This document shows positions 8,746-46,688 of a stretch of 64,000 nt of DNA, one piece after another. Under the pieces are notes generated by a model. That model worked only from the letters and a program-made list of their open reading frames with translations, did not search any database and was not told the origin of the DNA. Source of the stretch: Synergistaceae bacterium (GTDB lineage Bacteria; Synergistota; Synergistia; Synergistales; Aminobacteriaceae); contig JAHDKT010000026.1 in assembly GCA_018436725.1 (NCBI GenBank), positions 1 to 64,000 on the forward strand, given 5' to 3'. The first letter of the stretch is position 1. Each line of letters opens with the position of its first letter. A program made the translations under genes and the position numbers.

Positions 8746-9189
8746 TTATAAAGCACCGATTCGCTTACGAAAACAATCCGCATATTTTTCCATCAGACGA
8801 ATGTATGTGTTGATTTCTTCTGTCGACCAAGATTCAAAAGCCTGTACTTCCGCTTCGTAGAGCTTCGCCACAGTCTTCTTCACATACTCTTTGCCCTTTT
8901 CCGTCAGGACGATTTTTTTTGCTCTGCCTGTGTACTGTTCCAGAAATAGAATGCCATCAGCCTCTAAACCTCGAATAGCCGAGTTCACCGTCTGTTTGCT
9001 GATTCCCGATTTCTTATAAATATCGCTGAGCAAACAAATTTCGCCCGCGTCGTAGATTGTATACAACACAATAGAGACGCTGTCCGTAATGCCCAGCTTT
9101 AACGATGCCTGATGATACAATGCTTCCATTTCAGAAGTCAGATAATTGATTCGATGAATTTCGTCAAATCTCTTTTGATTCATCACCAT
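8746..9189 (-). CDS. MarR-family transcriptional regulator
   Basis: 147 aa with a winged-HTH core (SQLRILLYL-type: SDIYKKSGISKQTVNSAIRGLEADGIL). Followed by a palindromic operator. Confidence 0.8.
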   Translation of the reverse strand: MVMNQKRFDEIHRINYLTSEMEALYHQASLKLGITDSVSIVLYTIYDAGEICLLSDIYKKSGISKQTVNSAIRGLEADGILFLEQYTGRAKKIVLTEKGKEYVKKTVAKLYEAEVQAFESWSTEEINTYIRLMEKYADCFRKRIGAL

Positions 9190-9196
9190 ACCTCCA

Positions 9197-9236
9197 AGTA
9201 CGATTTCGTACCTTTATTATAGTACGAAATCGTACT
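9197..9236. promoter_or_regulatory. candidate MarR operator: two inverted copies of the 14-bp palindrome GTACGAwwTCGTAC
   Basis: agtacgatttcgtac at 9197-9211 and gtacgaaatcgtact at 9222-9236 flank the spacer ctttattata, immediately upstream of the MarR start codon. Confidence 0.5.
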
Positions 9237-9276
9237 TTCATCAATAGGGTTCAAAAAAGTTACAAAAACGAAACTC

Positions 9277-10605: not shown

Positions 10606-10662
10606 AACACGATGCGACAGAGCGCCCTCCGGTTGTCGGACCGAAGGGCGCTCTGTCGCATC
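10606..10662 (-). terminator. hairpin downstream of the flotillin gene
   Basis: cgatgcgacagagcgccct...agggcgctctgtcgcatcg, a long inverted repeat just past the stop at 10675. Confidence 0.4.
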
Positions 10663-10674
10663 GATATGTTTTCG

Positions 10675-20921: not shown

Positions 20922-21818
20922 ATGACGAAAGAACGAATCGGATTCATCGGCCTAGGCATCATGGGGAAGCGCATGGCGCTGAACCTGCTCAAGGCGGGGT
21001 ACTCCATGACCATCCGCAGCGGCAGCGAAGAGACCCGGAACGAGTTCGCCGCGAAGGGCGTCCGGGTGGCGCGGACTCCCGCCGATGTGGCTGCCGAAAG
21101 CGACGTGATCATCACCATGCTTCCGGGATCTCCCGAGGTGGAGGAGGTCGTCCTGGGAGATCACGGTATCATCCGCACGGTCCGGGAGGGGAGCGTCTGC
21201 ATCGACACGAGTTCCATCGATCCGGTGACGTCGGTACGCATCGCCTCGGAGCTGCGGAAGAAAGGCGTCTCCATGCTCGACGCCCCGGTCAGCGGCGGCC
21301 AGGAGAAGGCGGAATCAGGCACGCTCTCCATCATGGCAGGAGGCGACGAAAAGGTCTTCGAGCGCTGCCGGGGCATTCTGCGGGCGATGGGCAAGGACGT
21401 CGTCCTCGTGGGCTGCTCGGGGGCGGGGCAGATCGCCAAGCTGGTGAACCAGTGCATCGTCGCCGTCAACATGGCGATCGTGGGCGAGGCCATGTGCCTC
21501 GGGAAGAAGGCCGGAGTGGACCCGCGGAAGATCTTCGAGGCCATACGGGGAGGGCTCGCCGGAAGCCAGTGCATGACGGACAAGGCGCCGCGCATGTTCA
21601 CCGGAGACTACGCCCCCGGCGGAAAGATGTGGCTCCACGTCAAGGATCTGAAGAACGTGATGACCGCGTGCCATGAATACGATGTCGCCATGCCGCTGAC
21701 CGAGAGCGTTCTGAAGATGATGGAGGAGGTCGTGCGGGACGCGGGTCCGGACACCGACCACGGAGGCGTCGCCAAGTACTTCGAAAAGCTCAACGGCGTC
21801 TCGCTGGTGACGGAATAG
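20922..21818 (+). CDS. garR: NAD(P)-dependent 3-hydroxyacid dehydrogenase (HIBADH/tartronate-semialdehyde reductase family)
   Basis: GFIGLGIMG Rossmann motif. Catalytic Lys region (GxxGxGxxxKxxxN: GAGQIAKLVNQ). About 298 aa. Confidence 0.8.
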   Translation: MTKERIGFIGLGIMGKRMALNLLKAGYSMTIRSGSEETRNEFAAKGVRVARTPADVAAESDVIITMLPGSPEVEEVVLGDHGIIRTVREGSVCIDTSSIDPVTSVRIASELRKKGVSMLDAPVSGGQEKAESGTLSIMAGGDEKVFERCRGILRAMGKDVVLVGCSGAGQIAKLVNQCIVAVNMAIVGEAMCLGKKAGVDPRKIFEAIRGGLAGSQCMTDKAPRMFTGDYAPGGKMWLHVKDLKNVMTACHEYDVAMPLTESVLKMMEEVVRDAGPDTDHGGVAKYFEKLNGVSLVTE

Positions 21819-27776: not shown

Positions 27777-28982
27777 GTGGCGGACTTTCGCGCATCCGCG
27801 CAGAAGCTTCAGCAGCAGATAACGTCCTGGAGACGGGATCTGCACAAGATTCCCGAGACGGGGGTGGACACCCCGCAAACGGAGGCGTACATCTGCGCCG
27901 AGCTGGACAAGATGGGGGTCTCCTACCGCAGAGGCCTCGGCGGACACGGCATCGTAGCCCTCGTCGAGGGAAAACACAAGAAGAAGGTCTTCGCGATCCG
28001 CGCGGATATCGACGGCCTTCCGATCAAAGAGGAGACGGGGCTTCCCTTCGCCTCCGGGAACGGGTGCATGCACGCTTGCGGCCACGACGCGCACGCGGCG
28101 ATGGGGCTTGCCTCGGTGAAGCTGCTGAACGACGTCCGGGGAGAGATCGACGGCTCGGTGCTCGTCGTATTCCAGCCCGGCGAAGAGGGGTGTCCGGACG
28201 GCCCCGGCGGAGCGAAGCGGATGCTCGACGACGGCGCCTTCGAGGATCCGAAGCCGGACGCGATGGTGGGGCTGCATACGGGCTCCATCTGGAAGGATTT
28301 CGTCCCCGGCGAGATAGGCTACCGTCCGGGCAGCATCATGGCATGCATGGACCGCTTCGAGATCCTCGTCAAGGGGAAGGGCTCGCACGGGGCGTACCCC
28401 CAGGGCTCCGTGGACACGATCTCCATCGCGGGGCAGATGATCTGCGAGCTGCAGACGATCGTGAGCCGCGAGGTCGACCCGCAGGAGCCGTGCGTGATCA
28501 GCCTCGGGGAGATCCACGCGGGAAGCGCCTTCAACATCATCCCCGGAGAGTGCCGCATCACCGGCACGGTCCGGGCCTTCAACCAGGAGATGCGGGAGTT
28601 CCTGGCCCGCCGTATCGGCGAGGTCGCCTCGGCGGTGGCCTCCGGAATGCGGGGGAGCGTCGAATTCTCGTACGGCTGGCACGGCCCCGCGCCCGTGGTG
28701 AACGACCCCGTCATGACTGAGGAACTTCGCCTGGCGGCGGAGAAGGTCGTCGGCCCCGAGAAGGTCCGTGAAATTTCGCGCCCCTCGATGGGCGGCGAGG
28801 ACATCGCCTTCTTCCTCGAAAAGGCCCCCGGCACGTTCTTCTTCTTACCCGGCTGCAACGAGGCGAAGGGGCAGACGTGGCCGCACCACAACAGCCGCTT
28901 CGACATCGACGAGGACGTCCTCTGGATCGGTCCGGCCGTCATGGCCACGATGGCCGTCGACTGGCTGAAAAAACAGGCGTAG
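27777..28982 (+). CDS. M20D-family amidohydrolase (N-acyl-L-amino acid amidohydrolase/hippuricase-like)
   Basis: GTG start after AAGGAGGGG. Motifs HACGHDAH and GEEG plus a dimerisation lid. A partial paralog at 44665-45300 starts with ATG at the equivalent codon. Confidence 0.85.
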   Translation: MADFRASAQKLQQQITSWRRDLHKIPETGVDTPQTEAYICAELDKMGVSYRRGLGGHGIVALVEGKHKKKVFAIRADIDGLPIKEETGLPFASGNGCMHACGHDAHAAMGLASVKLLNDVRGEIDGSVLVVFQPGEEGCPDGPGGAKRMLDDGAFEDPKPDAMVGLHTGSIWKDFVPGEIGYRPGSIMACMDRFEILVKGKGSHGAYPQGSVDTISIAGQMICELQTIVSREVDPQEPCVISLGEIHAGSAFNIIPGECRITGTVRAFNQEMREFLARRIGEVASAVASGMRGSVEFSYGWHGPAPVVNDPVMTEELRLAAEKVVGPEKVREISRPSMGGEDIAFFLEKAPGTFFFLPGCNEAKGQTWPHHNSRFDIDEDVLWIGPAVMATMAVDWLKKQA

Positions 28983-32971: not shown

Positions 32972-33221
32972 AGCGCAGGGGAAGCTTCACGACACGCACG
33001 CACCGGGGAACACGCGTCGAGGCGAGCACATGCTCTCCTCGACGCGTGTTTTCGGCGGTTCCATCGCTCCATTGATATCAGGTAGACTTATCGTCCCTCT
33101 TCGCCTTGTCCCGGACGGTAAGCAAGAGGAGAGAGGAAGAGTTTTGCCGTTATGCAGAACTGTGCATAACGGCGATTCCTTTGTCCGTATCGGCCGGCAC
33201 GGACTGCCCCTTTTCAAGACT

Positions 33222-33251
33222 GATCAAAACGCGGCGCGTTGCGCGCCGCGT
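33222..33251 (-). terminator. terminator downstream of the MCP gene
   Basis: gcggcgcg-ttg-cgcgccgc hairpin followed by gttttgat on the minus strand. Confidence 0.4.
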
Positions 33252-33287
33252 TCGCCGTCGTCATCCTCGCGCTCTCTCAGCGCTTCT

Positions 33288-35294
33288 TCAACGCCGGACC
33301 TTGCTCTCCTGCGTCACTTTGAAGCGCGCGACCGCCTGCTGCAACATTTCGCCCAGGTTCACAAGTTCTTCCGAAGCCGCCGCGATCGCCTCCACTACCT
33401 TGCTCTGCTCCTGCATCGAACGGTTCACTCCGCCGACCTGCTCCGCGATCTCGACGCTCGACTTCGACACGCCGTCCATGCCCGCCGTCATCTCCTCCGC
33501 GCTCGCCGATTGCTCCTCCACCGTCGCCGCTATGGTCTGGATGTTCTCCGTCACGTTGTTCATCCGCTTCACAACGTCGCGTATGACTCCGCTCGTCTCG
33601 GAGGCCTTCTTTACGAGTTCCTGGAGGATCTTCGACGACCCCTCGGAGTCCTTCAGCGCGCTCTCCGTCCGCGAGATGATCTCCCCTATCAGCTTCCCGA
33701 CCTCGCCCGCCGCCCGGTTCGACTCCTCCGCCAGCTTGCGGACCTCTTCGGCGACGACTGCGAATCCGCGCCCGGCCTCCCCTGCGCGCGCGGCCTCGAT
33801 CGCCGCGTTCAACGCCAGCAGGTTCGTCTGGTCGGCGATCTGCGTAATAGTAACCACGAATCCGGAAATGTTCTTCACCGTCCCGGAAAGATTCGCCACC
33901 GCGCTTCCGACCTGCTCGCCCGCCTTCGCCGTCTTCGTGATCATGACGGCCATCTCCTCGACCGAGTCGCCGCCCTTCTGCGCGGCCTCGGAAACCGCAA
34001 CGGCGCCTTCGCCCGCCTCGGACGCCGCCTGCGCCGCCGCCTGCGCGCCGGAGGCGACTTCCTCGACGCCCGCGTTCGTCTCCTCGACCGCCGCGGCCGC
34101 GTTCTCGGTCTGCGCGCTCGTCTTCTCCGTGATCGCCAGCACTTCCTCTATAGCGGCCGTCGACTCCTCGGCGGCTGCGCTCAGATCCTCCGCCTTGGCC
34201 AGCACGTGCTGCGCCGTCTCAAGAATCTCGCGGATGGAGCCGGAGACGAGCGTGATCATCGAATTGACAGACCCCACCAGGAGGTTGATCTCTTTCATGC
34301 CGCTTTTCAGTTCGACAGTCGAGGTCAGGTCGCCTTTTGAGACTGCGTCCATCTTCTCGGCGATGATCTTGACCGGCTTGGCGATGCTTTTCGCCACCCA
34401 GAGCGAAATCAGCACCACGACGAGCGCGATCACCGCCACGGAGATCCAGATGGCATTCCGGATAGCCCGCACCGGCGCAAGAAACTCCTGAATCGGCGTG
34501 GTGACGGCGGCGAGCCACCCCGTGCCGTGGACGGGCGCGTACGCGTTCATCTGGTCTCTACCGTTGAAGAAATACTCAATCCTTCCGGCTCTGCCCGCAA
34601 GACCGTCGCGCATGGCGTTCGCCAGCTCCGAGGCGACTCGCTCGCTCTCGACCGTCAGGCTGAGCTTGCCCAGCAGATCGACCACCGGATGAGCGACGAG
34701 CACGCCGGACTTGTCGATGAGATAGGCGTACCCGCTCCGCCCCCAGACGAGAGAGGATATCTCCTTGGAGATCGTCTCCAAGGACTCCGACGCCACAAGC
34801 ACCCCGACCACTTTCCCGTCGACGACGATGGGAGAAGCGTAGAAAACCGTCATCGCTCCCGTAAGCCTGTGAACGACCGGTTCAGAGATTACCGACCTTT
34901 TCTCCTTGACCGCACGGATGAAGTATTCTCTGTCTTTGATATTTATTTCCTGAGGGCCGAGTCGAACATCGTTGATGGCGCCGTCAAGGGTTGCGACGAA
35001 AATATTCCCAAAATTATACTGATCGTACAGCGGAAGGAGAGACGGCTGCTGTTCCGCCCAGTTCATCGACCGAACGACATGTCGCTCCGCCTGCGTCGTT
35101 AAAATAATAGACCGCTCGCGAAGATAGGCGTCCACCTTCTCGGAAAGGCCCAAGGCGAGCGCGTCACCCTCCTTCCATGCCGCATCGATGATCGCCGTCT
35201 GCGATCTGTTCATGGCGATCAGGCCGACGACGGCCACCGCCGAAAGCGAAACGACAAGAAATATCCCGATGAGTCTACCACGAAGCGTATTCAT
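33288..35294 (-). CDS. methyl-accepting chemotaxis protein with periplasmic dCache-type sensor
   Basis: Start at MNTLRGRL with RBS AAGGAGG. TM, about 270-aa periplasmic domain, TM, HAMP, then Ala/Glu-rich MCP signalling domain with the highly conserved hairpin region. Confidence 0.9.
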
Positions 35295-35955
35295 ATCGTA
35301 CCCCTCCTTTTCGGAATCAGGCTTGTGAAAGAGCGTTCCCGTCACGCCGTTCTTCTTTGCGCAGACTCCGCTGAGTTTCGAGTCCACATCCCCTTCTCTC
35401 CTAGACGATTCTCATCGTTTCCGCCTTTCAGCGATCCTAACCGAGAACGGATCGCCTATAACGACAAACCCGACGTCCTTTCGACGTTGAGCGGGGCGGC
35501 GATATTCTATTCATAGCGAGTCCAAAGGATCATCGGAGCATTAGTATGCGCTCTAAGGGAGGAAGAAACATCGAAAAGACCTACAGTTCTTCAACTGGAA
35601 AACTTTACAGTTGACAATTCAGCAACTTTCCTTGAAAATCCGAATGCGACAATGGCGCAGTTCCGCAGGATATGGATCGGGCGCCGCTCTCGCTCGCGAA
35701 CCCGCTTCCCGAGAAAATCCCGATCGTCTTTCGGCGAAAGGAGCGGAGATAGTCGGATTGCGGACCTCCTTAGGGCCGGGAGTAAGCAGATCGCCCGTAG
35801 TGAAGGCGTCGCCGGGATTCAAGAAAGGATTCGCTTACGTCAAGGAAGCACTCGCAGATTCAGGGGCAAACTGCGAGGCCGCGTTTTTCGCCGGAGGAAC
35901 GACCTCTCCTCTTTCTTGATCGGCGTCGTAAGGGCAATGCGAACAAATCCTGGCA

Positions 35956-36468
35956 TCAAAAGACACAGTTCGCCTCTTTCAGCCTGGATAGCAGTCGTGC
36001 GGCGAGCAGACCGACCGCAAGACCGGTTGCTGCGCCCGCGGCAAGCAGCACGGGAAGGTAGACGAGAAGGGGGCGGATATCCCCCACCAGAAGGGCAACG
36101 ACCGAAAACTGCCCGATATTGAACGCGAACGCTCCTCCGGCGCTCACCCCGGCTATCGAAAATGCGTCGATACACCGGAGCGTCGCCATGCTTCCGACGG
36201 CGATCAGCCCGCCTCCCAGGCTACATAGAAAGGCGAAGACGTTTCCCGTGAAGAGAAGCGTCAGGAGCACTCTGCAAAGAACGACAAGAAGAGCGGCCCT
36301 CGCCCCTAAAAGGTAGAGGGCCGTGACTACGAAAATGTTCGCGAAGCCGAGCCTGACACCCGGAAGCGGCAGCGACGGGAGCAGATTCTCAAGCATTCCG
36401 GTCGCGAAGGCGAGCGCCGTCAGCAAACCGACGATCCCCGCGCGACCACCCCTAATCGGAGGGCGCAT
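35956..36468 (-). CDS. Gx transporter family membrane protein (heptaprenyl-diphosphate-synthase component-I-like)
   Basis: 170 aa, five TM segments, glycine-rich. Overlaps the upstream NusG-II gene. This pairing is typical. Confidence 0.65.
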   Translation of the reverse strand: MRPPIRGGRAGIVGLLTALAFATGMLENLLPSLPLPGVRLGFANIFVVTALYLLGARAALLVVLCRVLLTLLFTGNVFAFLCSLGGGLIAVGSMATLRCIDAFSIAGVSAGGAFAFNIGQFSVVALLVGDIRPLLVYLPVLLAAGAATGLAVGLLAARLLSRLKEANCVF

Positions 36469-36862
36469 CGAACTCCGTCTCCCCGCTTCCGATGACCTTC
36501 AGGACGAGCCTGTTCGGAAGACAGACTGTCGCCTCCCCAGGATGCTTGATCCAGCCCGTCCGCACGCAGCGGCCGTCGGGGCAGTCGGAACGAAGCATCC
36601 GGATTCGTCCGCCTTCGCTACGGATGACGACATCCCCCCCGGCGCTGCCGGTCAGCGAGTATTCGGACGGAGTTCCTCCCTTGGAAAGCGGGAAAGTATG
36701 CACCACCTCGCCGCCAACCGTCAGAATCGCCGAACGCTCTCCATTTCCCGGCGCAAGACTCCTCCATGCGAAGAGCACCAGAGCAAACAGCAGGAGTCCA
36801 CCGACAAGCAGGAGATCTCTTAAATCAATACTTTCCACATCGGAGAGAGATAGCCGGACCAT
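36452..36862 (-). CDS. NusG domain II-containing (DUF1312) membrane-anchored protein
   Basis: N-terminal TM, then a beta-rich domain with a CxxxxC pair (DCPDGRC). Start at 36862 or 36883. Confidence 0.6.
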   Translation of the reverse strand: MVRLSLSDVESIDLRDLLLVGGLLLFALVLFAWRSLAPGNGERSAILTVGGEVVHTFPLSKGGTPSEYSLTGSAGGDVVIRSEGGRIRMLRSDCPDGRCVRTGWIKHPGEATVCLPNRLVLKVIGSGETEFDAPSD

Positions 36863-36921
36863 TGCGTTAACCACCATACCCAACTAAGCATCGGGCGACA
36901 CCCGAAGACCTCATATTCATA

Positions 36922-38307
36922 TCACTTGGTATATATTTCGAGCAATTTATGCCTCTCGCTATTATAGAGCTTTGAAATAAGCTCGCCGAAGAGAAAAGAC
37001 ACGTTTACACCCTGTCCGCCGTTATAACCGAGTGCATAGAAGATGTTTTTATGCCTTCCGGTGATCCCGATCCTTTCGCTCTTGCTCCTGGTTTCGCAAA
37101 TAATACCGTTCCACGTGTTTTCAATACGGATACCTTTGAGCGATGGATAGAGTTCGGAGAGTCGTTTAGCGATCTGGGCCTCGATCGTCCGGAGATCGCC
37201 GGGATACAGGAGACTTTCGTCGTCGTTGTACTCCACGCTGCCGCCGCCGATGACGATGCGACGGTCTTTGGTGATGATCATGTGGAAGGTGGCGTCCGAA
37301 TCCGTACCGGCGTATTGGTCGTCGTACCATGCAATGTGATCTTTCCAACCAAGGCTCCGGTATTGTTCCTCGCTCAACGGCGCGGTAACGGCTACTTGAG
37401 TATGGGCGGGCTCGATGTCATTCGCCAGAAAGTTCAAGGTAGCCGCAGCGTAGGCGTTGGCAGCGATAACAATACTTTTCGCCTTGACCTTGTATCTATT
37501 GCCTTTGGCGACAACCGGAAGCTCGATGATCTTCCCCTCGTTATAACCCCACACAGTACTGTTCTCGTAGATGACAACCCCGGCATCTTCGGCCAGTTTC
37601 TTTAAAGCGGCCACCAGCTTGCCCGCGTTCACCATACCGCCGTTGGGATCGTAGACTGCCCCGAGAAGTCCGGGGGATCCCAGCATACCGATTGCTTTCT
37701 CCCGCTCCCAGAATTCGATAGGCATGCCCATTTCCCGGGCAGCGGCTGCGTATTGCCGAAAATCGGCCAGGTTCTCCCGATCGAAGATACCCAGGCTTTG
37801 GCCGTTGAGTACAAACTCTGGATCTATGCCGGAGGATTCGGCCAGAGCCTTAAAGCGTTTCATGCCGGCGACCGTGATGTCATAGATCTCCTTATGATGA
37901 GCCTTGTTCGCTCCCATCACGAAGCCACCCTCGCTGTAAGTCTGGGCAAGAACAAGACCTCCGTGACGTCCGGAGGCTCCGCTGCCGACTCGCCCGGCCT
38001 CGAAGATCACCACTTCAAGCGCGGGATTGGATTTCTTGATGTGATAGGCAGCGGACAGCCCCGTATAGCCGCCACCGATAACCGCCACATCGACGCTCAG
38101 GTTTTTATCCAAAGCGGGATTGACCCGAGGAAGAAACTGCGCCCAGTAACTTTCGTTTTTATCGAAAATCATCGACTCGTCGAGATCGACGCCCTCCGCG
38201 AAACCTCCTGAAGCCAGCAGGATTAAAAAAAGAAGCGACAAGAACGCCTGCAAGCGATGCTTTCGCAAAATTTCGGACGCCCTAAATAGCATGCCGATAG
38301 TTCGCAT
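36922..38307 (-). CDS. secreted FAD-dependent oxidoreductase (DAO family)
   Basis: Signal peptide, VAVIGGGYTGLSAAYHI dinucleotide-binding motif, about 460 aa. Low-GC patch. The ORF could extend to 38406. Confidence 0.7.
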   Translation of the reverse strand: MRTIGMLFRASEILRKHRLQAFLSLLFLILLASGGFAEGVDLDESMIFDKNESYWAQFLPRVNPALDKNLSVDVAVIGGGYTGLSAAYHIKKSNPALEVVIFEAGRVGSGASGRHGGLVLAQTYSEGGFVMGANKAHHKEIYDITVAGMKRFKALAESSGIDPEFVLNGQSLGIFDRENLADFRQYAAAAREMGMPIEFWEREKAIGMLGSPGLLGAVYDPNGGMVNAGKLVAALKKLAEDAGVVIYENSTVWGYNEGKIIELPVVAKGNRYKVKAKSIVIAANAYAAATLNFLANDIEPAHTQVAVTAPLSEEQYRSLGWKDHIAWYDDQYAGTDSDATFHMIITKDRRIVIGGGSVEYNDDESLLYPGDLRTIEAQIAKRLSELYPSLKGIRIENTWNGIICETRSKSERIGITGRHKNIFYALGYNGGQGVNVSFLFGELISKLYNSERHKLLEIYTK

Positions 38308-38485
38308 TGGAATACCCCCCTTTTTTCCGCATAGCCGAAATCCGACGGCAACCAAGTCTATGTGACGTTTTGAAGCCCTCCTGGATACTTGTTTTTCTAT
38401 CGTCATGCAATAGCAGATCAGACTATCGACACATTATGAAGGCTTTGCATGTTTGCGTCTTTGCGAGTTTCTTATTTAATTTTCA

Positions 38486-39059
38486 TTATTTTGCAATTAT
38501 AGCGTTTTTGGGAAAGAAGTCAAGGTTTATAACATTGATGTAGTTCCGCTTGCTGCCCGCCGCCTCTACGTTCATCGGGCATCGGGCCAGGAGCGAGCTG
38601 AGCAGTTCGTTCCTGGCGGACTGTCGCTGGGAGATGCTTTCGATAGTCGTAGTGCTCGGGATCGTTCCGGGAGAGAAGAGTTCCAGCCTGTCCGCAAAAA
38701 CGTGAAGTCGAATCTTGGAGCCGTAGATCGAGTAGTCCCGGCGAGCGACAGCGTTGGTCACCGCCGCGAAGACTGCGTTCATCGAAAACTGCGGCGTTTC
38801 GATTCTATTGGGAGTTTTTTACGGCGAGCCCCCGCGTGTTTCGTTCGACGAATTTGCAAGCCTCCCTTATTTGAACGTCCAGCGGGCCGACGACGTCCTT
38901 CGCGTCCAGTTGGTACGCGGCGTTCCGCTCGGCGCCGGGATAGCATACGGCTTGAATGAGGGCGCTGGAAAGGTACGATTCCGGCGCGTCCGAAGCCATG
39001 AGAATACCGCTCACCGTCGCTCGAATGCTTTCGTTTTCGTCTTTGGCGATCAGCCTCAT
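38486..39059 (-). pseudogene. frameshifted remnant of an ATP-binding (HATPase_c_4/AlbA_2-type) putative regulator gene
   Basis: Two adjacent ORFs in different frames. The second contains AVTNAVARRDYSIYGSKIRLHVFADRLELFSPG, the hallmark HATPase_c_4 motif (..NAlvHRDY...i.v..f.drieiiSPG). Confidence 0.5.
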
Positions 39060-39501
39060 CTTCCCTAGAAAATCCCGATCCGCCTTCGGTGAAAGCAGCT
39101 ATTCGGGCTTTTTTCATTCTCGTACATCATCGACCTCCGTTGTCGCGTCTTCTCGCGTCTTCTCGCGCCTTCTCGCGTACATTCATTTCGAGCTGTCGTC
39201 GGGACTCCATCCTCAGGCTTATGCCTTGTCGTTGCGTGTCGTTGCGGATGGCGGGGCGGACGTAATCCCGTCCGAACCACAATATGCAGACTCCCGACGC
39301 TAGTCAAACGTTTTTTCGTGCCCCGCCCGGCCTCCCGAGGCGCACACCCACCACCTTTTTCCCGCCTGCGAAATTCGAGTATGGACAAAATTTATAATAT
39401 GCCGTACTATCTTTGCAAAGCATCGGCCGCTAATTGAACATAATATTCTGTCCAATAAGAGCCGTTTTGTGTATATTCTAATATTTTAGGAGGGTGTCGT
39501 T

Positions 39502-40095
39502 ATGAGTCTTGAATTCGACGAGAAGCTGTCGCATCTGGAGAAGCCGTCTCGGGCGGACGTGCCCGACGAGCATATGAAGATCTACGAGGAAAACGTGGCG
39601 TCCATGGAGAAAAACTGGGGGTTCATCAACAACCTCTTCAAGGTGCTCCCCCTCAATTCGTCCCAGTACATGGGCTTCCTCCATTTCAAGGCCTCTCTTT
39701 TCACCCCCGAGACCTGCTACCTGAGCAACGCCGACAAGGAGATGATCGGCCTGGTCGTTTCCTCCACCAACGGCTGCAACTACTGCCTGACCACCCACAG
39801 CGACTACCTCCGCGGCATGACGAACGACCCCGTGTGGGTCGACCAGCTCACCTACAACTACCGCGCGGCCAAGCTGACGGAAAAACAGCGCGCCCTCTGC
39901 GACTACGCCTATTTCGTCACCGCCTATCCCAGAGAGATCACCACGGAACAGGTGGACAAGCTCCGGGAGGCCGGCTTCAACGACCACGAGATTCTCGAGG
40001 CCGCCTACGTGGCGGGTTTTTTCAACTACACGAACCGCTGGGTGAGCACCATCGAGCCTCTGGCGAACCCGGGACACTACAGCCACAACCGCTGA
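39502..40095 (+). CDS. carboxymuconolactone decarboxylase-family / peroxidase-related (AhpD-like) protein
   Basis: 197 aa. Tandem CMD-like helical repeats with CxxC-like NGCNYCLTTH motif. Confidence 0.7.
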   Translation: MSLEFDEKLSHLEKPSRADVPDEHMKIYEENVASMEKNWGFINNLFKVLPLNSSQYMGFLHFKASLFTPETCYLSNADKEMIGLVVSSTNGCNYCLTTHSDYLRGMTNDPVWVDQLTYNYRAAKLTEKQRALCDYAYFVTAYPREITTEQVDKLREAGFNDHEILEAAYVAGFFNYTNRWVSTIEPLANPGHYSHNR

Positions 40096-40107
40096 CGGGC
40101 GGACATC

Positions 40108-42051
40108 ATGGAGTACAAACGCCTGTTTGAAAAGGGAAGAATCGGCAATCTGACACTCCGGAACCGCAGCGTCATGAGCCCCATGGCGACCGATTTCGCC
40201 GACCACGACGGAACCGTCTCCATGAAGCTGCTCCGGTACTACCAGGAGCGCGCCAGAGGCGGCATCGGCCTGATCATCAACGAGTACACCGGAGTGGACC
40301 ACGTGGACAGCGTTCCGTCGCCCCATAACCTTCGCGCGTCGGCCGACTGGCACATCGCGGGGCTGGAAAGCCTCGTGGATGCCGTGCACGCCTACGGGGC
40401 GCTCATCTTCGCCCAGATTCACCACGGCGGCTCCACGTCGAAGCCCGCGCTGAGCGGCAGGCAGTCGCTGAGCGCGAGCGACGTGCCCGCCGCCCCCGGA
40501 GCGCCCGCGCCCAGGGCCATGACCATCGAGGAGATCAAGGCGGTTCAAAAAAAATTCACGGACGCCGCCGTGCGCTGCAAAAAGGCGGGGTACGACGGCG
40601 TAGAGCTTCACGGCGCCCACTCCTATCTCATCGGGCAGTTCTTCAGCCCGTACTACAACAAGCGAACCGACGAGTACGGCGGCGGCTTCGAAAACCGCAT
40701 GCGGTTCACGGGAGAGATCATCGACGGCATCCGGGCCGCCCTCGGCAGCGGATTTCCCCTTTCGGTGAGGATAAGCGGCGACGAGATGACGCCCGGGGTT
40801 CCCGGCGCCCTGACCCTCGAGGACGGACTTCGGATAGGGAAATACCTGGAAGAGAAGGGAATCGACGTCCTGAACGTGAGCAACGGAAGCGCGCTCAACG
40901 GCAACGCGAACTGCGACCCCTACTCCTACGCGCCGGGCTGGAAGAAGCATGTGGCGAAGGCCTTCAAGCAGGCCCTGAAGATTCCCATAATCGCGACGAA
41001 CACCATCAAGGATCCCGCCTTCGCCGAATCGCTTCTCGAAGAAGGGGTGTGCGACTTCGTGGGCCTCGGTCGCTCGCAGTTCGCCGATCCCGACTTCATG
41101 AAGAAGGCGAAGGAGGGGCGGGAGGACGAAATCCGCCAGTGCATCGGCTGCATGGTCTGTCGGGAGCGCCTTCTGGCGAAGGGGCAGACGGCGGTGTGCG
41201 CCGTCAATCCGCGCATGGGGCGGGAGTATCTTTATCCCGACTACCCGAGGAACGGCTCGGGGAGGACGGTCTGCGTCGCCGGCGGAGGACCGGGAGGCAT
41301 GGAGGCGGCCAGGGTGCTGGCAGAACGGGGATTCGCCGTGACGCTGATCGAGAAGCGTCCGGACCTCGGGGGCGCCCTCCTCCTGGCGGACAAACCGCCC
41401 CACAAGGAGCTGATCACCCGTCTCATACGCACGATGAAAAGAGAACTCGAAGTTCTGGGGGTGAACGTGGTCTGCGGAACGGAGGCCACTCCCGAACGTG
41501 TGAAAAAGTATGCGCCCGAGGCCGTCTTCATCGCCACTGGCGCGGTTCCACTGATCCCGAAGATTCCGGGAGTCGATCTCCCGAACGTGTGCACCGCAGA
41601 CGACGTGGTGGAGGGAAAGGCGCGCCCCGCAGGGCGCGTGGCTGTGATCGGCACCGGAATGACGGGGCTCGAGACCGCCGAGATGCTCGGAGCGGCGGGG
41701 TGCGATCTGCTGCTCGTGGAGATGCTCCCCGATATCGGGCCGGGAATCTTCCCCGTGATCAGGAACGATATTCTGGGCCGCGTCATGGCCATGAAGCCCG
41801 AGGTATACGCCGGACACAAGCTCGTGGAAATCCTTCCCGACGGCATCCGCATGACCCGCGCCGACGGCGCGGTCGTGGAGGCCGATATCGACGCCGTGGT
41901 GCTCTCCCTCGGCATCCGCCCGACCAGGAACGTCGTGGAAGCGTTCGAGGCGGCGTTCGAGCGCGTTATCCCCGTGGCGGACGCCGCCACGCCCGGCAGA
42001 ATCTACGAGGCCACGAAGGACGCCTTCGACAAGGCGTATCATTTCGAGTAA
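40108..42051 (+). CDS. Old-Yellow-Enzyme-family FMN oxidoreductase fused to FAD/NAD(P)-binding domain (2-enoate reductase / 2,4-dienoyl-CoA-reductase-like)
   Basis: 647 aa. N-terminal OYE TIM barrel (HGAHSYLIGQFFSP). 4Fe-4S Cys cluster (CIGCMVCRE...C). C-terminal GGGPGG dinucleotide-binding domain. Confidence 0.85.
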   Translation: MEYKRLFEKGRIGNLTLRNRSVMSPMATDFADHDGTVSMKLLRYYQERARGGIGLIINEYTGVDHVDSVPSPHNLRASADWHIAGLESLVDAVHAYGALIFAQIHHGGSTSKPALSGRQSLSASDVPAAPGAPAPRAMTIEEIKAVQKKFTDAAVRCKKAGYDGVELHGAHSYLIGQFFSPYYNKRTDEYGGGFENRMRFTGEIIDGIRAALGSGFPLSVRISGDEMTPGVPGALTLEDGLRIGKYLEEKGIDVLNVSNGSALNGNANCDPYSYAPGWKKHVAKAFKQALKIPIIATNTIKDPAFAESLLEEGVCDFVGLGRSQFADPDFMKKAKEGREDEIRQCIGCMVCRERLLAKGQTAVCAVNPRMGREYLYPDYPRNGSGRTVCVAGGGPGGMEAARVLAERGFAVTLIEKRPDLGGALLLADKPPHKELITRLIRTMKRELEVLGVNVVCGTEATPERVKKYAPEAVFIATGAVPLIPKIPGVDLPNVCTADDVVEGKARPAGRVAVIGTGMTGLETAEMLGAAGCDLLLVEMLPDIGPGIFPVIRNDILGRVMAMKPEVYAGHKLVEILPDGIRMTRADGAVVEADIDAVVLSLGIRPTRNVVEAFEAAFERVIPVADAATPGRIYEATKDAFDKAYHFE

Positions 42052-42093
42052 GCGGGAATTCCCCCGCCTGATAGCAAAGCAACGATCAACAAT

Positions 42094-42399
42094 ATGGACG
42101 CCGAGGGGAACGCCCATTACCCGGGGTGGGATCTCGAAACGGTGAAATGGCTGTGCGCGGAGCGGAGCATCGGCTCCATCGGCCACGAAACGCCGGACAC
42201 GAACCCCGCCTGCCGACAGCGCGACATCGGCTTCGCCGCCGAGGACTACATCCTCCGGCAGGACAAAACCCAGGTCGAGCTGCTGTGCAACCTCGACAAA
42301 GTACCGCCCGCAGGAGCGATCATCTTCTGCATGTTCCCCAAACTGAAGGGCGGCACGGGCTTCCCGGCCAGATGCTTCGCCGTCTGCCCGGCTGAATGA
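42094..42399 (+). pseudogene. C-terminal fragment of a cyclase-family (kynurenine-formamidase-like) protein
   Basis: The 101-aa ORF corresponds to only the last third of cyclase proteins (..IGSIGHETPDT......PKLKGGTGFPARCFAV). The N-terminal His-rich metal site is missing. The upstream gene ends 42 nt before. Confidence 0.45.
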
Positions 42400-42449
42400 T
42401 CCTCTACGGTGCGGGGCGCTTCTCCTCCGTGCCGACCGCAAAAAAACAG

Positions 42450-42492
42450 GGGCGCTCCCGCTTGCGACGGAACGCCCCTGTTCATTGAACAC
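42450..42492 (-). terminator. intrinsic terminator downstream of the SLH/OmpM-like gene
   Basis: aaaaaaacaggggcg...cgcccctgtt. GC stem followed by TTTTTTT on the minus strand. Confidence 0.55.
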
Positions 42493-42514
42493 CGAAACGT
42501 TTTTCTACCTCGAG

Positions 42515-43987
42515 TTAAAAAGATATGGATGTACGCAGCCGAATCATATGGTCGTCCTTCTGTGTCCATAAAGCGGCATTATCGAATTCGATCTTGTCGT
42601 ACAACAACTCGAACTGCAGGGAGGGCGAGTATAAATAACGAACGCCCAACATCCAGTTCGTGTGGTCCGCCATACCGTCTGCGGAAACGTCGTATTTCAC
42701 GTCGAGATAACGGAAAAAAGTAACCCATCGCTCGGACCACTCCTGTTCCGCAGCGATCAAAAGATAGTTCATCCCGTTGTTTCGCGTAGGATCGTCGATG
42801 CCGAAAGCAGGACTCGCCGCTGAGTCTTCCGCGATTTGCTCAGCGTAGGCGAGGCCGTTGATATGCGTCATGAACGTAGGATCGAGCTTGGCATACTCGA
42901 TCCACAAGCTCGAGTACTTCAACGTATCCCGCCCGATATCGAGAATCGCCTTGTACGCCTTGGGGGAGTCGTCCAGTCCGTTGTTCGCGGCCGCCCAATC
43001 ATACTTGTTCGCCGCGTACATACCACGCAATGCAATATCCGGGGTGAAATTCACTCCGAAGTCGATCCAGTATGATTGTACTTTTTCCAGTTCCGCATTG
43101 GAACCAAGCTTGAACTCCTTTACGAGTCCGTTGACGCTCATAGAAAGTTCTTCGTTGAAATCCAACCGCATTCGCGCACCGTAGATATCCTGTTCGCCTT
43201 CTTCGCTAGGATCGTCGTAATGCCCCCACAAAAGCGCGAACGCTCCCATTCCGAACTGCTTGTCGAACACCATGCCTTCGATGTTGTCGTTAAGAAACCA
43301 CGCATCGTCGCCATAGGCGTCGTTATACAGGCCTTCTTCCCAAACGATGCCATCCGTACGACCGAACTTGGCTGTAATCTCCCAAGGAAAATTCACGGTG
43401 ATGAAATTCTCTTTCCAATAAAGTCCTGATGAATTTCTTCTGGCAAGAAGGGCGCTGTAGGTTACTTTTTCGTCGATGCGCCGTACCAATTGAATCCAAT
43501 TGTCGTCGAAGCGCATAGAAAGGTCTTGTTTACCTTCTTCCGTATACGAACCGCCCTCGAGGTCGGCCCATTTCCAGTCCATTCGGAAAGAACCGCTGAT
43601 CGACCAACCCCCTAATTTTTCTTCGAGAACGGCAAGACGTCCGTCCACTTTATTCACCTTTACACCGAGCGCATCAAGCTCGTCCTTGAACTCGACGACC
43701 AGCCTTTTCAGCATTTCGACATCCTGTCGATCCGCTTTTTCCGCATCCATCGCAGCGAGAACCCTGGCCGTCGCGGAAGCGGCCTCATAACGAGTCATCG
43801 GTTGAGCGCCCTTATAGGTTCCATCGGGATAACCGGACAAAAATCCCTTTGCCGCAAGCTGGGCAATGGAGTCGTAAGCCCAATGCCCGTTCGGTACATC
43901 CATAAAAGGATTGGTTGCCGCGAGAGAAGGAAAGGAGAAAAACACGACGCTTAAAAATATCGCACCGAAGAGAAATCTCTTATTCAT
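42515..43987 (-). CDS. S-layer-homology (SLH) domain outer-membrane protein, OmpM-like porin
   Basis: Start at MNKRFLFGAIFL (signal peptide). N-terminal SLH motif (FMDVPNGHWAYDSIAQLAAKGFLSGYPDGTYKG), coiled-coil linker, then roughly 350-aa beta-barrel-like region with alternating aromatic residues. Lower-GC. Confidence 0.8.
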   Translation of the reverse strand: MNKRFLFGAIFLSVVFFSFPSLAATNPFMDVPNGHWAYDSIAQLAAKGFLSGYPDGTYKGAQPMTRYEAASATARVLAAMDAEKADRQDVEMLKRLVVEFKDELDALGVKVNKVDGRLAVLEEKLGGWSISGSFRMDWKWADLEGGSYTEEGKQDLSMRFDDNWIQLVRRIDEKVTYSALLARRNSSGLYWKENFITVNFPWEITAKFGRTDGIVWEEGLYNDAYGDDAWFLNDNIEGMVFDKQFGMGAFALLWGHYDDPSEEGEQDIYGARMRLDFNEELSMSVNGLVKEFKLGSNAELEKVQSYWIDFGVNFTPDIALRGMYAANKYDWAAANNGLDDSPKAYKAILDIGRDTLKYSSLWIEYAKLDPTFMTHINGLAYAEQIAEDSAASPAFGIDDPTRNNGMNYLLIAAEQEWSERWVTFFRYLDVKYDVSADGMADHTNWMLGVRYLYSPSLQFELLYDKIEFDNAALWTQKDDHMIRLRTSISF

Positions 43988-44150
43988 CGATTTTCCATCT
44001 TCTTTCTTGAAATAATCTTTAATGTTTACAAACCAACCATACGCCACGCCTCGAATCGCAGGAGACGTATCCCGTGCGCGGCAGAATTCCCCAAGGAATA
44101 CCCCCCTTCGCCCTTTTCAACTACGCGTCATCCAAACATGTACATTTTGC

Positions 44151-44208
44151 TGGTATTCTGCGCGCCGGTTAGTTAGATAAATCTAACTAACCGGCGCGCA
44201 GAATACCA
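44151..44208. repeat. perfect 58-nt palindrome (28-nt arms, 2-nt centre)
   Basis: tggtattctgcgcgccggttagttagat aa atctaactaaccggcgcgcagaatacca, exact reverse complement arms. Confidence 0.9.
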
Positions 44209-44232
44209 CAACTTTTGCCATCCGTCAATCAT

Positions 44233-44603
44233 TTCTTATCAGGGCGCTGGGACAGCGGATCGGCCCCACCGCGAGCAGCACGACCCTGCACCTCTCCGGG
44301 TTGCTGCTCTCGCTGTTTCTGCTCTGGTGCGGAGGGGGAGAACGGATTCAGGAGTGGTATACGGCGCCGTGGTACATGCTTGCCGCAGGATGCCTGGGGG
44401 TGGCGCTGTTCCGGACGATCAACGTGACGCTCCCCTGTCTGGGCGCGACGGCCATGGTGACCCTGATCATCGTCGGGCAGCTGTTGACGGGCGTCCTGAT
44501 CGACGCGCAGGGGTGGCTGGGGACGGCGGCGCGACCGTTCGACATGTTCAGGGCGGCGGGCGTGCTTCTGTTGCTCGCCGGAGGCTGGCTGATCGTCCGG
44601 TAG
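44233..44603 (+). pseudogene. 5'-truncated paralog of the DMT membrane-protein gene at 25521-25958
   Basis: Alignable from codon about 26 onward (QRIGPTASS...GGWLIVR). Identical C-terminus. No start codon or RBS at the truncation point. Confidence 0.6.
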
Positions 44604-44664
44604 AATTTTTTCGGCAGCGTTTATAACGAGACATCAAGAGGTATAGAACAAAGGAGATGGTACG

Positions 44665-45300
44665 ATGGCGGACTTTCGCGCTTCGGCGCAGCGGCTTCAT
44701 CAGCGGATAACAACATGGCGGCGGGATCTGCACGGGATTCCCGAGACGGGAGTGGACACCCCGCAGACGGAGGCGTATATCTGCGCCGAGCTGGACAAAA
44801 TAGGCGTCTCCTACCGCAAGGGGCTCGGCAAACACGGCGTCGTCGCGCTCGTCGAGGGAAAGCATAAAAACAGGGTCTTCGCGATCCGCGCGGACATGGA
44901 CGGCCTTCCCATCAAGGAAGAGACGGGGCTTCCCTTCGCCTCGCAGAACGGTTGCATGCACGCATGCGGGCACGATGCGCACGCGGCGATGGGACTGGCC
45001 TCGGTGAAGCTGCTGCACGACGTCCGGGAGAAGATCGAGGGCTCGGTGCTCGTCGTCTTCCAGCCCGGCGAAGAGGGGTGCACCGACGGCCCCGGCGGAG
45101 CGAAGCGGATGCTCGACGACGGCGCGTTCGACGATCCGAAACCGGACGCGATGGTCGGCCTGCATACCGGCTGCAACGAGGCGAAGGGACAGACGTGGCC
45201 GCACCACAACAGCCGCTTCGACATCGACGAGGACGTCCTCTGGATCGGACCGGCCGTCATGGCGACGATGGCCTTCGACTGGCTGAAGAAACAGGCGTGA
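44665..45300 (+). pseudogene. internally deleted paralog of the M20D amidohydrolase gene at 27777-28982
   Basis: 211 aa versus 401 aa. Colinear through ...DAMVGLHTG, then jumps in-frame to CNEAKGQTWPHHNSRFDIDEDVLWIGPAVMATMA. The deletion removes the lid domain and one metal ligand region. Confidence 0.65.
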
Positions 45301-45428
45301 CGGTTTTCCGGAAAGAGTCGTGCGCTTTTCGAGCGTCCACACTGGAATGAAAGAAGCCGGGAACCACCCCCTCGCGGACTCTCGGCTTCTTTTTTCAACG
45401 TTCTTTCAAGCCTTGCAACGAAGGCGGT

Positions 45429-46688
45429 CTAGTTGCGCCCCCCTTTCGCGCGCACGCAGAGAAGAGGAAGAAGCGCCAACAGGAAGAACGCCGGGAAACC
45501 CGCGCTGTTGCAGCCGCCTCCCGAGTCGCCCGGAGCCGGATTGACCGGCGCGTCGACGACCACGAAGGAGTAGAAGTTGCCTCCGAGCGCGGCCGGGCCG
45601 AACTCCCACGACTCCGCTCCCTTGTAGGCCATCAGGCGAGTCCCCGCGGCGAACCAGAGAATGCCGTCCACATTGTCGTACTCCATGCGCCACGTAAATC
45701 CTGGACCGCTTGGATCTCTGTACACTTCGCCGACGTTTCCCGCGGCGAGTCCCTGGAGCGTCGTCTTGAAAATCCGGCTGTCGAACTGCGACCACGTCGC
45801 GTCGTAGGCTCCGGCGAAGACATAGACGTCGCCGTTCGCGGCGAAGGCCAGATCGCGGAAGTCGTACCCCCAGGCGTCGGGGAGAGCCGCCGCGGAAGCG
45901 TCGCTGGCCTTAAGGAGCGTCTCCACGGCGAGCGTGTTCGGGTGCACCCTCTGTATCATGGAGTCCGGGTTGAAGTCCCCGCCCTTTTGCATGCCGCCGT
46001 TGCCGACGACGTAGAGCATGCCGTTGTACGCCTTGATCGAGAGGGCGTTCTTGCCGACGTTCGCCGTAGCCATTACATTCAAGTCTCCGTCCAGCTTCAC
46101 GACTTTTCCGTCGGCGTATTCGAGCGAACTCCAATCGCCCTTCACCTCGTTGAAAAGAGCGAACAGGTAGTCGCCGACCCGCACGATCCCCTCGCCGTGG
46201 ACGTCGTACCCCGCGGTTCCGCTGAATGCGAACGAGGAGACCTCGCCGTATTCGTCGCTCCGCGTATCGATTTTCGAGACCTTCGCATTGTCGTAATCCA
46301 CGACGTACAGATACCGCCCCATCGCCGCCGCTCCGCGGCTGTTCGAAAACGAACGCCACCGCGCCTCTTTCAACGGCGCCCGATATTCTCCGCGCGCGTC
46401 GTATATCCAGACCGTGTCGGACTGTCCGCGCGCGTACTGGGCGAGGAGAACGCGCAGAGCGTTCTCCTCGTTCCTGAATCCGTAGACCTGATGATCCCCT
46501 CCGAGATTCGTCACGACGTTCTTCACCGGCGTTCCGGGAACGCCCGAAGCCGACACCGGAACTCGCCCCATGCTCCCCGAGGCGTACGTATCGTCCACCA
46601 CGGTGTAGACGACGCTCCCCCATGCGGCGATCGGGACCAGCAACACCGCGAGCAGCGTAATGAGCGCGCACCATCTTCTTTTCACCAT
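45429..46688 (-). CDS. secreted beta-rich protein with Synerg-CTERM-like C-terminal sorting tail (possible B12-capture protein)
   Basis: Signal peptide. Repeated blade-like segments (YVVDYDN, LYVVGNGG, DVYVFAG). C-terminal DSGGGCNSAGFPAFFLLALLPLLCVRAKGGRN resembles the GGGC-hydrophobic-basic tripartite Synergist-CTERM motif. Immediately downstream of btuB. Confidence 0.55.
   Translation of the reverse strand: MVKRRWCALITLLAVLLVPIAAWGSVVYTVVDDTYASGSMGRVPVSASGVPGTPVKNVVTNLGGDHQVYGFRNEENALRVLLAQYARGQSDTVWIYDARGEYRAPLKEARWRSFSNSRGAAAMGRYLYVVDYDNAKVSKIDTRSDEYGEVSSFAFSGTAGYDVHGEGIVRVGDYLFALFNEVKGDWSSLEYADGKVVKLDGDLNVMATANVGKNALSIKAYNGMLYVVGNGGMQKGGDFNPDSMIQRVHPNTLAVETLLKASDASAAALPDAWGYDFRDLAFAANGDVYVFAGAYDATWSQFDSRIFKTTLQGLAAGNVGEVYRDPSGPGFTWRMEYDNVDGILWFAAGTRLMAYKGAESWEFGPAALGGNFYSFVVVDAPVNPAPGDSGGGCNSAGFPAFFLLALLPLLCVRAKGGRN

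Follow-up and report, generated by a model that had tools for sequence, protein, structure and literature searches.

A perfect 58-bp palindrome with a two-orientation centre upstream of an accessory ompM-like gene in a Synergistota genomic island

Positions 44151-44208 of contig JAHDKT010000026.1 from Synergistaceae bacterium (assembly GCA_018436725.1) form a perfect palindrome of 58 bp, which is the subject of this report. We analysed the first 64,000 nucleotides of this contig, hereafter called the window. The palindrome lies upstream of an accessory gene of the ompM type (ompM'), at the edge of a block of low GC content (~42400-44220, ~50% as against 60-67% in the flanks). On its other side follow the remnants of two genes, one encoding a DMT_YdcZ protein (DMT') and the other an M20 amidohydrolase (M20'). 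The host belongs to the Synergistota, and the nearest ompM relatives were found in metagenome-assembled genomes (MAGs) of Aminobacteriaceae and Synergistaceae. An earlier note made from the sequence alone had drawn attention to the palindrome and had correctly placed the start of the ompM-like gene at position 43987 on the minus strand. The features of the locus are listed in Table 1.

Table 1. Coordinates in the window of the palindrome and of the features around it
Feature	Position	Strand	Basis or remark
Left arm, TGGTATTCTGCGCGCCGGTTAGTTAGAT	44151..44178		Same in 9 assemblies
Centre dinucleotide	44179..44180	AA on + strand, TT in ompM sense	Inverted in L034, L041
Right arm	44181..44208		Direct sequence and repeat search
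TTTTGC direct repeat	44145..44150; again 44213..44218	+	Abuts left arm; second copy 4 nt past right arm
Degenerate third outer-arm copy (GGAATTCTGCCGCGC vs GGTATTCTGCGCGCC)	44076..44090	-	~60 nt downstream of palindrome
Candidate sigma-70-like promoter facing ompM'	44200..44228	-	Consensus scan
Putative mirror extended -10-like motif TGGTATTCT in left arm	44151..44159	+	Faces DMT'/M20' remnant; no good -35
Rest of ompM' leader	43988..44150	-	No homology to canonical ompM leader; no substitutions among strains
Ectopic ompM-like gene (ompM')	42515..43987	-	490 aa; Pfam SLH and porin-like C-terminal region
14-bp-stem hairpin between 3' ends of ompM' and cyclase-like fragment	42445..42482		Local terminator shape AACA...TGTT
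Junction zone, ompM' block / DMT' remnant	44209..44241		Alignment to intact DMT'
5'-truncated DMT_YdcZ pseudogene (DMT')	44242..44603	+	Pfam match from profile position 45/140
M20 amidohydrolase (M20 peptidase) remnant (M20')	44665..45300	+	Pfam match
Strain- and species-variable island, 12.4 kb, holding the palindrome	33062..45459		Not in sister species L028/L027

The palindrome reads TGGTATTCTGCGCGCCGGTTAGTTAGAT-AA-ATCTAACTAACCGGCGCGCAGAATACCA. Direct repeat analysis agreed with the earlier description: the two arms of 28 nt are complementary over their whole length (100%, without a mismatch) and flank a centre of 2 nt, which is not self-complementary. The outer ends read 5'-TG...CA-3'. This is the longest inverted repeat of the window. 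A search of the window for the half-site, allowing up to 3 mismatches, returned the two arms and nothing else, and no match arose in 100 shuffles. Folding of the 58-mer gives -54 kcal/mol for RNA (z = -10.9) and -35.9 kcal/mol for DNA (z = -15.4). The palindrome is confirmed as real and lies far beyond chance. The two copies of TTTTGC bracket the palindrome plus 4 nt, in a manner resembling a target-site duplication whose right-hand copy is offset by 4 nt; the chance frequency of such a repeat is 0.7-2%. A degenerate motif of the outer arm occurs a third time near the palindrome, giving three matches in the window against 0.17 expected, an excess of low weight because the pattern was picked post hoc.

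Both arms were found unchanged in eight further assemblies of the same species (L001, L002, L003, L025, L026, L034, L035 and L041). These contigs were located through the exact sequence of the OmpM-like protein and through the near-identical members of its cluster (0-4 amino-acid differences). L001, L003 and L025 are three MAGs of one project, L002 and L026 are Logan assemblies of SRR13787008 and SRR13787012, L034 is GCA_032941855.1, L035 is the JGI assembly 3300005665 and L041 is a SPAdes contig deposited in ENA (ERZ724080). Including the window, nine assemblies thus carry the palindrome. They derive from no fewer than five independent data sets and represent three or more assembly styles, namely MAGs of the MEGAHIT style, Logan contigs, a JGI assembly and a SPAdes contig, so that the palindrome is not the artefact of a single assembly. 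Palindromes are prone to assembly errors, and the orientation of their centre is ambiguous at k ≤ 28. However, the identical 58-mer was recovered with identical flanks in all nine assemblies, and its 58 nt are short enough to be contained in one short read. An assembly or sequencing artefact, against which the earlier note had warned, is effectively refuted for the palindrome itself, and we put its probability close to nil; only the two orientations of the centre still rest on assembled contigs. The engineered scar envisaged in the same note found no support either, the palindrome being present in environmental MAGs of several projects.

Over the 254 nt of the intergenic region (43988-44241), the sole polymorphism among the nine assemblies is the centre dinucleotide. 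Read in the sense of ompM, it is TT in seven of them and AA in the other two (L034 and L041), i.e. the exact reverse complement. The contig nearest to L041 is L025 (99.2% identical, with the M20' deletion variant in common), yet its centre has the opposite orientation, so that the change of the centre either recurred or was moved by recombination. From the divergence between L034 and the window, which differ at 1.5% of the sites, we estimated a chance of ~2.5e-5 for two independent substitutions giving exactly AA<->TT. One inversion of the spacer would explain the two alleles directly. In the nine assemblies, and at the level of assembled sequence, the arms are thus identical and variation is limited to inversion of the spacer, which is the pattern expected of template switching.

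A search for further half-sites returned no other copy. In 454 kb of fetched loci, with up to 7 mismatches allowed, the only other matches were chance ones seeded by the 19-mer search. The exact 22-mer of the half-site was absent from 185,579 species-representative genomes and from the IMG/VR viral contigs, and no half-site was detected by blastn (E up to 1) in the PLSDB plasmids or the INPHARED phages. The JGI metagenomes contained 19 single matches to a 19-mer of the half-site, none of them palindromic, in about nine unrelated sequence contexts that look like coding sequence. The palindrome is a single-copy sequence in everything searched (the window, the fetched loci and the genome, viral, plasmid, phage and metagenome collections), and it is confined to this lineage.

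Rfam gave only chance matches to miRNA hairpins, at 18-31 bits, far below the gathering scores of 60-120 bits, and a known RNA family was rejected. The abutted ends of insertion sequences (IS), such as the circle or (IS)2 junctions of IS30 and IS911, and the protelomerase site telRL of phage N15 (~56 bp) are near-perfect palindromes. They resemble the present one in their length of ~50-60 bp and their spacer of 0-3 bp. Unlike them, it has neither an IS body nor a transposase or protelomerase gene on either side, as far as the called genes with Pfam hits show, has no second copy in the sequences searched, and lies in chromosomal surroundings of housekeeping type. A telRL site was rejected, as the called neighbours included no Pfam hit of the phage or telomere-resolvase type and no phage matched. 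No transposase or integrase was present among the called genes with Pfam hits in ~24 kb of the window (~29.8-54 kb). An integron attC site is likewise a palindrome, imperfect to perfect, of similar length and bordering a gene-sized block, and its GTTRRRY and RYYYAAC heptamers are fitted by GTTAGAT and ATCTAAC. In contrast to attC, these core-like heptamers are adjacent at the centre (GTTAGAT-AA-ATCTAAC) instead of at the outer ends, pairing is perfect without extrahelical bases, and there is neither an integrase nor a cassette array; this assignment was rejected as well. Hairpins of the REP/RAYT and IS200 types did not fit in architecture or copy number, no cognate enzyme was present among the neighbours, and both types were rejected.

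The region upstream of ompM' was compared with that of six canonical ompM loci of relatives (L004, L005 and L030-L033). The product of ompM' has 949 homologues, the nearest of which outside the species is 64% identical; the biology of OmpM is described in PMC10628300. That nearest OmpM has an unrelated leader, and no relative of the ompM' upstream region was found outside the species in the collections. None of the six canonical loci has an inverted repeat upstream of ompM, and the palindrome is absent there. All six have in common a strongly conserved, structured leader of ~330 nt, unrelated to that of ompM'. The canonical context (five of the six loci; the contexts of L004 and L005 are unannotated) consists of a cell-envelope sugar or glycosyltransferase gene, OmpM, a protein of 254-261 aa, PFK and a GLUCM-like gene, the upstream gene being a Glyco_transf_9 heptosyltransferase in L030 and L033 and an epimerase in L031 and L032. 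From these comparisons, ompM' of the window is an ectopic paralogue with an upstream region unrelated to that of canonical ompM.

The canonical leader deserves a separate remark. The conserved region of ~330 nt, shared by canonical ompM genes of several Synergistota, comprises TTGACAATATGACCTTGG... and then the structured leader (L004:5590-5945, L005:5575-5950, L030:2660-3030, L031:2620-3030 and L033:2650-3030). RNAalifold predicted 52 pairs, 7 of them with compensatory changes, and there was no Rfam match. It may represent an undescribed cis-regulatory leader of the major porin/tether gene. We also observed that the ompM' open reading frame of L041 (P0124 / L041:6796-6840) ends in ...IGRASCRERV, which we take to be a translated Illumina adapter; if so, the public L041 contig is chimeric with an adapter at its end.

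Between the junction and the start codon of ompM' there is one sigma-70-like promoter candidate, and it reads toward ompM'. It consists of a -35 sequence TTGACG (44228-44223), a spacer of 17 nt and an extended -10 sequence TGgTATTCT (44208-44200) located inside the right arm. A conserved extended -10, TG(G/A)TATGAT, is also present in the native DMT promoter of the lineage. Transcription is predicted to start at ~44193, inside the palindrome, and to yield a leader of ~206 nt, similar in length to the long leaders of the canonical ompM genes; the fold of this predicted leader has a 5' hairpin of 13-16 bp.

The island that contains the palindrome is missing as a whole from the sister species L028 (~91% nucleotide identity), in which the site was located via the adjacent 419-aa gene. 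It encodes a methyl-accepting chemotaxis protein (MCP) and Hpre_diP_synt_I, contains a strain-specific insert of 2.67 kb (36583-39251), and continues with CMD, an OYE-type reductase, a cyclase-like fragment, ompM', the palindrome and the DMT' and M20' remnants. The window has this insert, with a DAO-family FAD oxidoreductase gene and a HATPase_c_4 helicase-like fragment, and L001, L002, L025 and L034 lack it. The matching stretches at its boundary overlap by 6 nt, i.e. an insertion or a deletion with a 6-nt junction repeat.

The DMT' remnant is devoid of its first 21-25 codons and of its promoter, and matches the intact L040 gene at 98% identity; at the protein level, the fragment's nearest full-length relatives are 94% identical. 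Homology to the intact gene is certain from position 44242 onward and may extend back to 44226, where CAATCA precedes a 10-nt patch whose 7 differences are all changes to A or T. The earlier note, right in outline, had given 44233. M20' has an internal deletion of 561 nt at a 9-nt microhomology (45167-45175), the gene being intact in L034, L038 and L040. The right flank of the window (M20', the 419-aa gene, the TonB-dependent receptor and TonB/ExbBD) is 98-99% identical in L040 and L038, which therefore belong to the same species or nearly so. In both, the DMT'-M20' pair is intact and retains its native promoter, an AAA_14 ATPase gene lies upstream, and neither ompM' nor the palindrome is present on the fetched contigs.

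As judged from these alignments, the junction between the ompM' block and DMT' is genuine and recent, having arisen within the species, and DMT'/M20' is the decayed remnant of an intact module that L040 and L038 have kept at the same position. The earlier note was thus right about a rearrangement junction with a 5'-truncated DMT_YdcZ/M20 remnant. The palindrome stands 17-33 bp away from the junction and not on it, and the remnant is not a truncated local duplicate of the DMT/amidohydrolase region made in situ, as the intact module of L040 and L038 and the intact M20' of L034 indicate. One arm of the palindrome could have been native DMT sequence, a possibility that was rejected because neither arm aligned to the paralogue or to intact DMT'.

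Three further observations concern this neighbourhood. In L040 (1-2216) and L038 (1-2623), the AAA_14/DUF4143 ATPase gene stands between the copies of a 71-nt direct repeat that corresponds to the 3' end of the gene before it and matches window 21741-21811. This arrangement may have been left by another insertion event at the same hot spot. The DMT_YdcZ-M20 pair (92-98% identical between L036, L037, L039 and L038, L040) occurs in at least two contexts in related Synergistales, beside Sulf_transp/WYL genes or beside the TonB-receptor operon, and hence behaves as a mobile two-gene module. Lastly, the M20 paralogues of the window (27778-28980 and 44665-45300, the latter corresponding to L034:1196-2398) show patchy identity, with 96% over the last 132 nt and 88% over the first ~510 nt; the intact L034 copy of M20' is 94% identical overall to the paralogue at 27.8 kb. 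This pattern suggests gene conversion between the paralogues.

The best overall explanation of these data would be an inverted duplication generated by template switching during replication, about which we are evenly divided between belief and doubt. According to this explanation, the palindrome is a single-copy, lineage-specific inverted duplication in the promoter-proximal leader of ompM', at the edge of the low-GC block. Fold-back copying of the nascent strand would have created the perfect second arm, and the same process would keep the arms identical and occasionally invert the 2-nt spacer, which would explain the TT/AA flip-flop alleles seen among strains. Long hairpin-forming DNA is a known trigger of fork stalling and breakage, which may plausibly have left the deletion or fusion end-point beside the palindrome. 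Of the mechanisms put forward in the earlier note, hairpin-mediated recombination comes closest to what the evidence favours.

The gene-distal arm, possibly co-opted as a promoter, would in addition provide the extended -10, so that ompM' transcription would start inside the palindrome and its mRNA would begin with the 13-16-bp 5'-terminal hairpin, which could stabilise the message. The 5' untranslated region (UTR) of Escherichia coli ompA likewise carries a 5'-terminal stem-loop that stabilises an abundant mRNA. The likeness would lie in a porin mRNA with a long leader and a stable 5'-terminal or near-terminal hairpin. They differ in that the ompM' start is predicted only, and in that the DNA palindrome is ~12-15 bp longer than the RNA hairpin needs.

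Related cases of template switching and inversion are on record. Template switching between the arms of an inverted repeat homogenises the arms and inverts the spacer (PMC8604942), template-switch mutagenesis of quasipalindromes operates in E. coli (PMC7202029), and hairpin-associated minute inversions are commonplace in plastomes (PMC6824564, PMC12928735). The palindrome shares with these systems its identical arms, its tiny spacer, the reverse-complement polymorphism of that spacer, its non-coding location and the fact that no recombinase is needed. It differs from them in that its 28-bp arms are long for a spontaneous bacterial case, the founding duplication is unobserved and the evidence comes from metagenome assemblies instead of a genetic assay.

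Several points weigh against the template-switch explanation. There is no outgroup with a pre-palindrome ompM' upstream region, and the duplication event itself was not observed. The TTTTGC repeat fits an insertion better than a duplication in place. The palindrome stands 17-33 bp from the junction, on its ompM' side and not at it, and the two may have unrelated origins. As to the promoter, the candidate is a consensus match, and one site found against 0.6 expected is weak alone. Both AA alleles rest on assembled contigs: L041 is a SPAdes contig of low coverage (4x), L034 comes from an unspecified assembler, and k ≤ 28 leaves a multi-k assembler unable to orient the centre. Finally, the absence of intergenic substitutions is compatible with neutrality, about two per comparison being expected from the divergence of ompM'. 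Selective constraint on the intergenic region was rejected, zero substitutions not being significant at a strain divergence of 0.1-0.8%.

An insertion is one alternative. The palindrome would then be a minimal, orphan miniature inverted-repeat transposable element (MITE), composed of two 28-bp terminal inverted repeats with hardly any sequence between them and inserted upstream of ompM' with a 6-bp target duplication, giving the gene an outward -10. The TG...CA ends, the TTTTGC copy abutting the left arm and recurring past the right one, and the arm-borne -10 at the correct 17-nt spacing from a flanking -35 are all in favour of this reading. Moreover, Correia repeat-enclosed elements and other bacterial MITEs sit in 5' UTRs, where Correia elements create promoters and RNase III-sensitive hairpins (PMC2649163; MITE review PMC10969869). 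Common features are terminal inverted repeats of ~26-28 bp, a position upstream of a gene, arms able to supply a promoter, and a hairpin in the transcript. Correia elements are 100-155 bp long, occur in hundreds of copies and are flanked by TA duplications, whereas the palindrome has 58 bp, an interior of 2 nt, a single copy in everything searched and only a 6-nt repeat whose right-hand copy is displaced by 4 nt. Its size of 58-62 bp would likewise be well below that of the described MITEs known to us. Because no second half-site was found in the collections searched and no transposase in the ~24 kb with precomputed Pfam gene calls, we consider a MITE unlikely, and the back-to-back or paired IS or MITE ends suggested in the earlier note were not borne out for the same reasons, the nearest ~10 kb around the palindrome being free of transposase genes.

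The earlier note had also considered a high-affinity site for a dimeric regulator of the porin gene. The perfect dyad symmetry over the candidate promoter would suit a lineage-specific operator, at which a dimeric or tetrameric protein, perhaps together with the motif at 44076-44090, would repress ompM' by covering the -10 and the transcription start. The partial third outer-arm motif, the arms free of substitutions in nine assemblies and a precedent within the window are in line with such a site. The precedent is a perfect inverted repeat at 9196-9237, with 16-nt arms and a 10-nt spacer (AAGTACGATTTCGTAC...GTACGAAATCGTACTT), in a divergent promoter region beside a MarR-family gene (8746-9189), of which it is probably the operator. 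Operator half-sites are normally much shorter than 28 bp, though, and selection for binding would explain neither perfection at all 28 positions nor a flipping centre; as noted above, arms free of substitutions are also what neutral evolution could give at this level of divergence. Neither the genes next to the palindrome nor the rest of the island included an identified regulator gene, and the site is absent upstream of every ompM relative examined. These two absences argue against a conserved operator and allow a lineage-specific one, which we hold to be rather improbable. A conserved ompM operator is not supported, the six canonical loci having an unrelated leader and no inverted repeat.

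A very long intrinsic terminator or insulator hairpin, brought along with the ompM' block and blocking read-through (e.g. antisense transcription from the operon of the TonB receptor and the 419-aa gene), appears highly improbable. Long-stem, tiny-loop hairpins do serve as terminators in this lineage. One at 33009-33050, with a 20-bp stem and a 2-nt loop, is maintained in L028 through compensatory changes, another at 10610-10663, with a 24-bp stem, lies 12 nt past the stop of a Band_7 gene, and a third at 42445-42482 separates convergent gene ends. Downstream of the 419-aa gene, furthermore, the sole terminator-like match has five pairs (minus strand, 45371-45359). The local terminators, however, have the form AACA...stem...TGTT with flanking A and T runs and lie at the 3' ends of genes, neither of which applies to the palindrome. 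Beyond its stem, which ends in GAATACCA, come GCAAAAUG (minus strand) and CAACUUUU (plus strand), so that neither direction offers an adjacent U-tract; no gene ends at the palindrome on either strand, and the terminator scan did not call it. On its tail sequence, its position and the scan result, compared with the characterised local terminators, an intrinsic terminator was rejected. With regard to the local hairpins themselves, the loop at 10610-10663 is of 6 nt and the upstream gene is of the Band_7/SPFH type, and the hairpin at 33009-33050 lies 11 nt from the left edge of the island; terminators of this lineage seem as a rule to combine long stems (14-24 bp) with tiny loops.

More far-reaching readings can be imagined, to which we attach little probability. 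The palindrome might be a self-renewing regulatory module, in which two inward extended -10s would form face-to-face promoters with complementary 5' hairpins controlling ompM' and DMT'/M20', or it might be the smallest MITE yet (58-62 bp), creating a porin promoter.

The palindrome is a new instance of a known sequence behaviour and not a new kind of system. If the template-switch explanation is correct, it would constitute a clean natural example, from the little-studied phylum Synergistota, of a long perfect palindrome that persists in a bacterial chromosome, remains perfect and flips its spacer beside a recent end-point of illegitimate recombination, and an accessory OmpM-type porin gene may also owe its promoter and 5' hairpin to one of the arms. 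Its main value would lie in being a well-documented case and a marker of a hypervariable island. The read-level ratio of the two centre orientations in public runs would provide a direct in-situ measure of template-switch or inverted-repeat recombination in uncultured bacteria.

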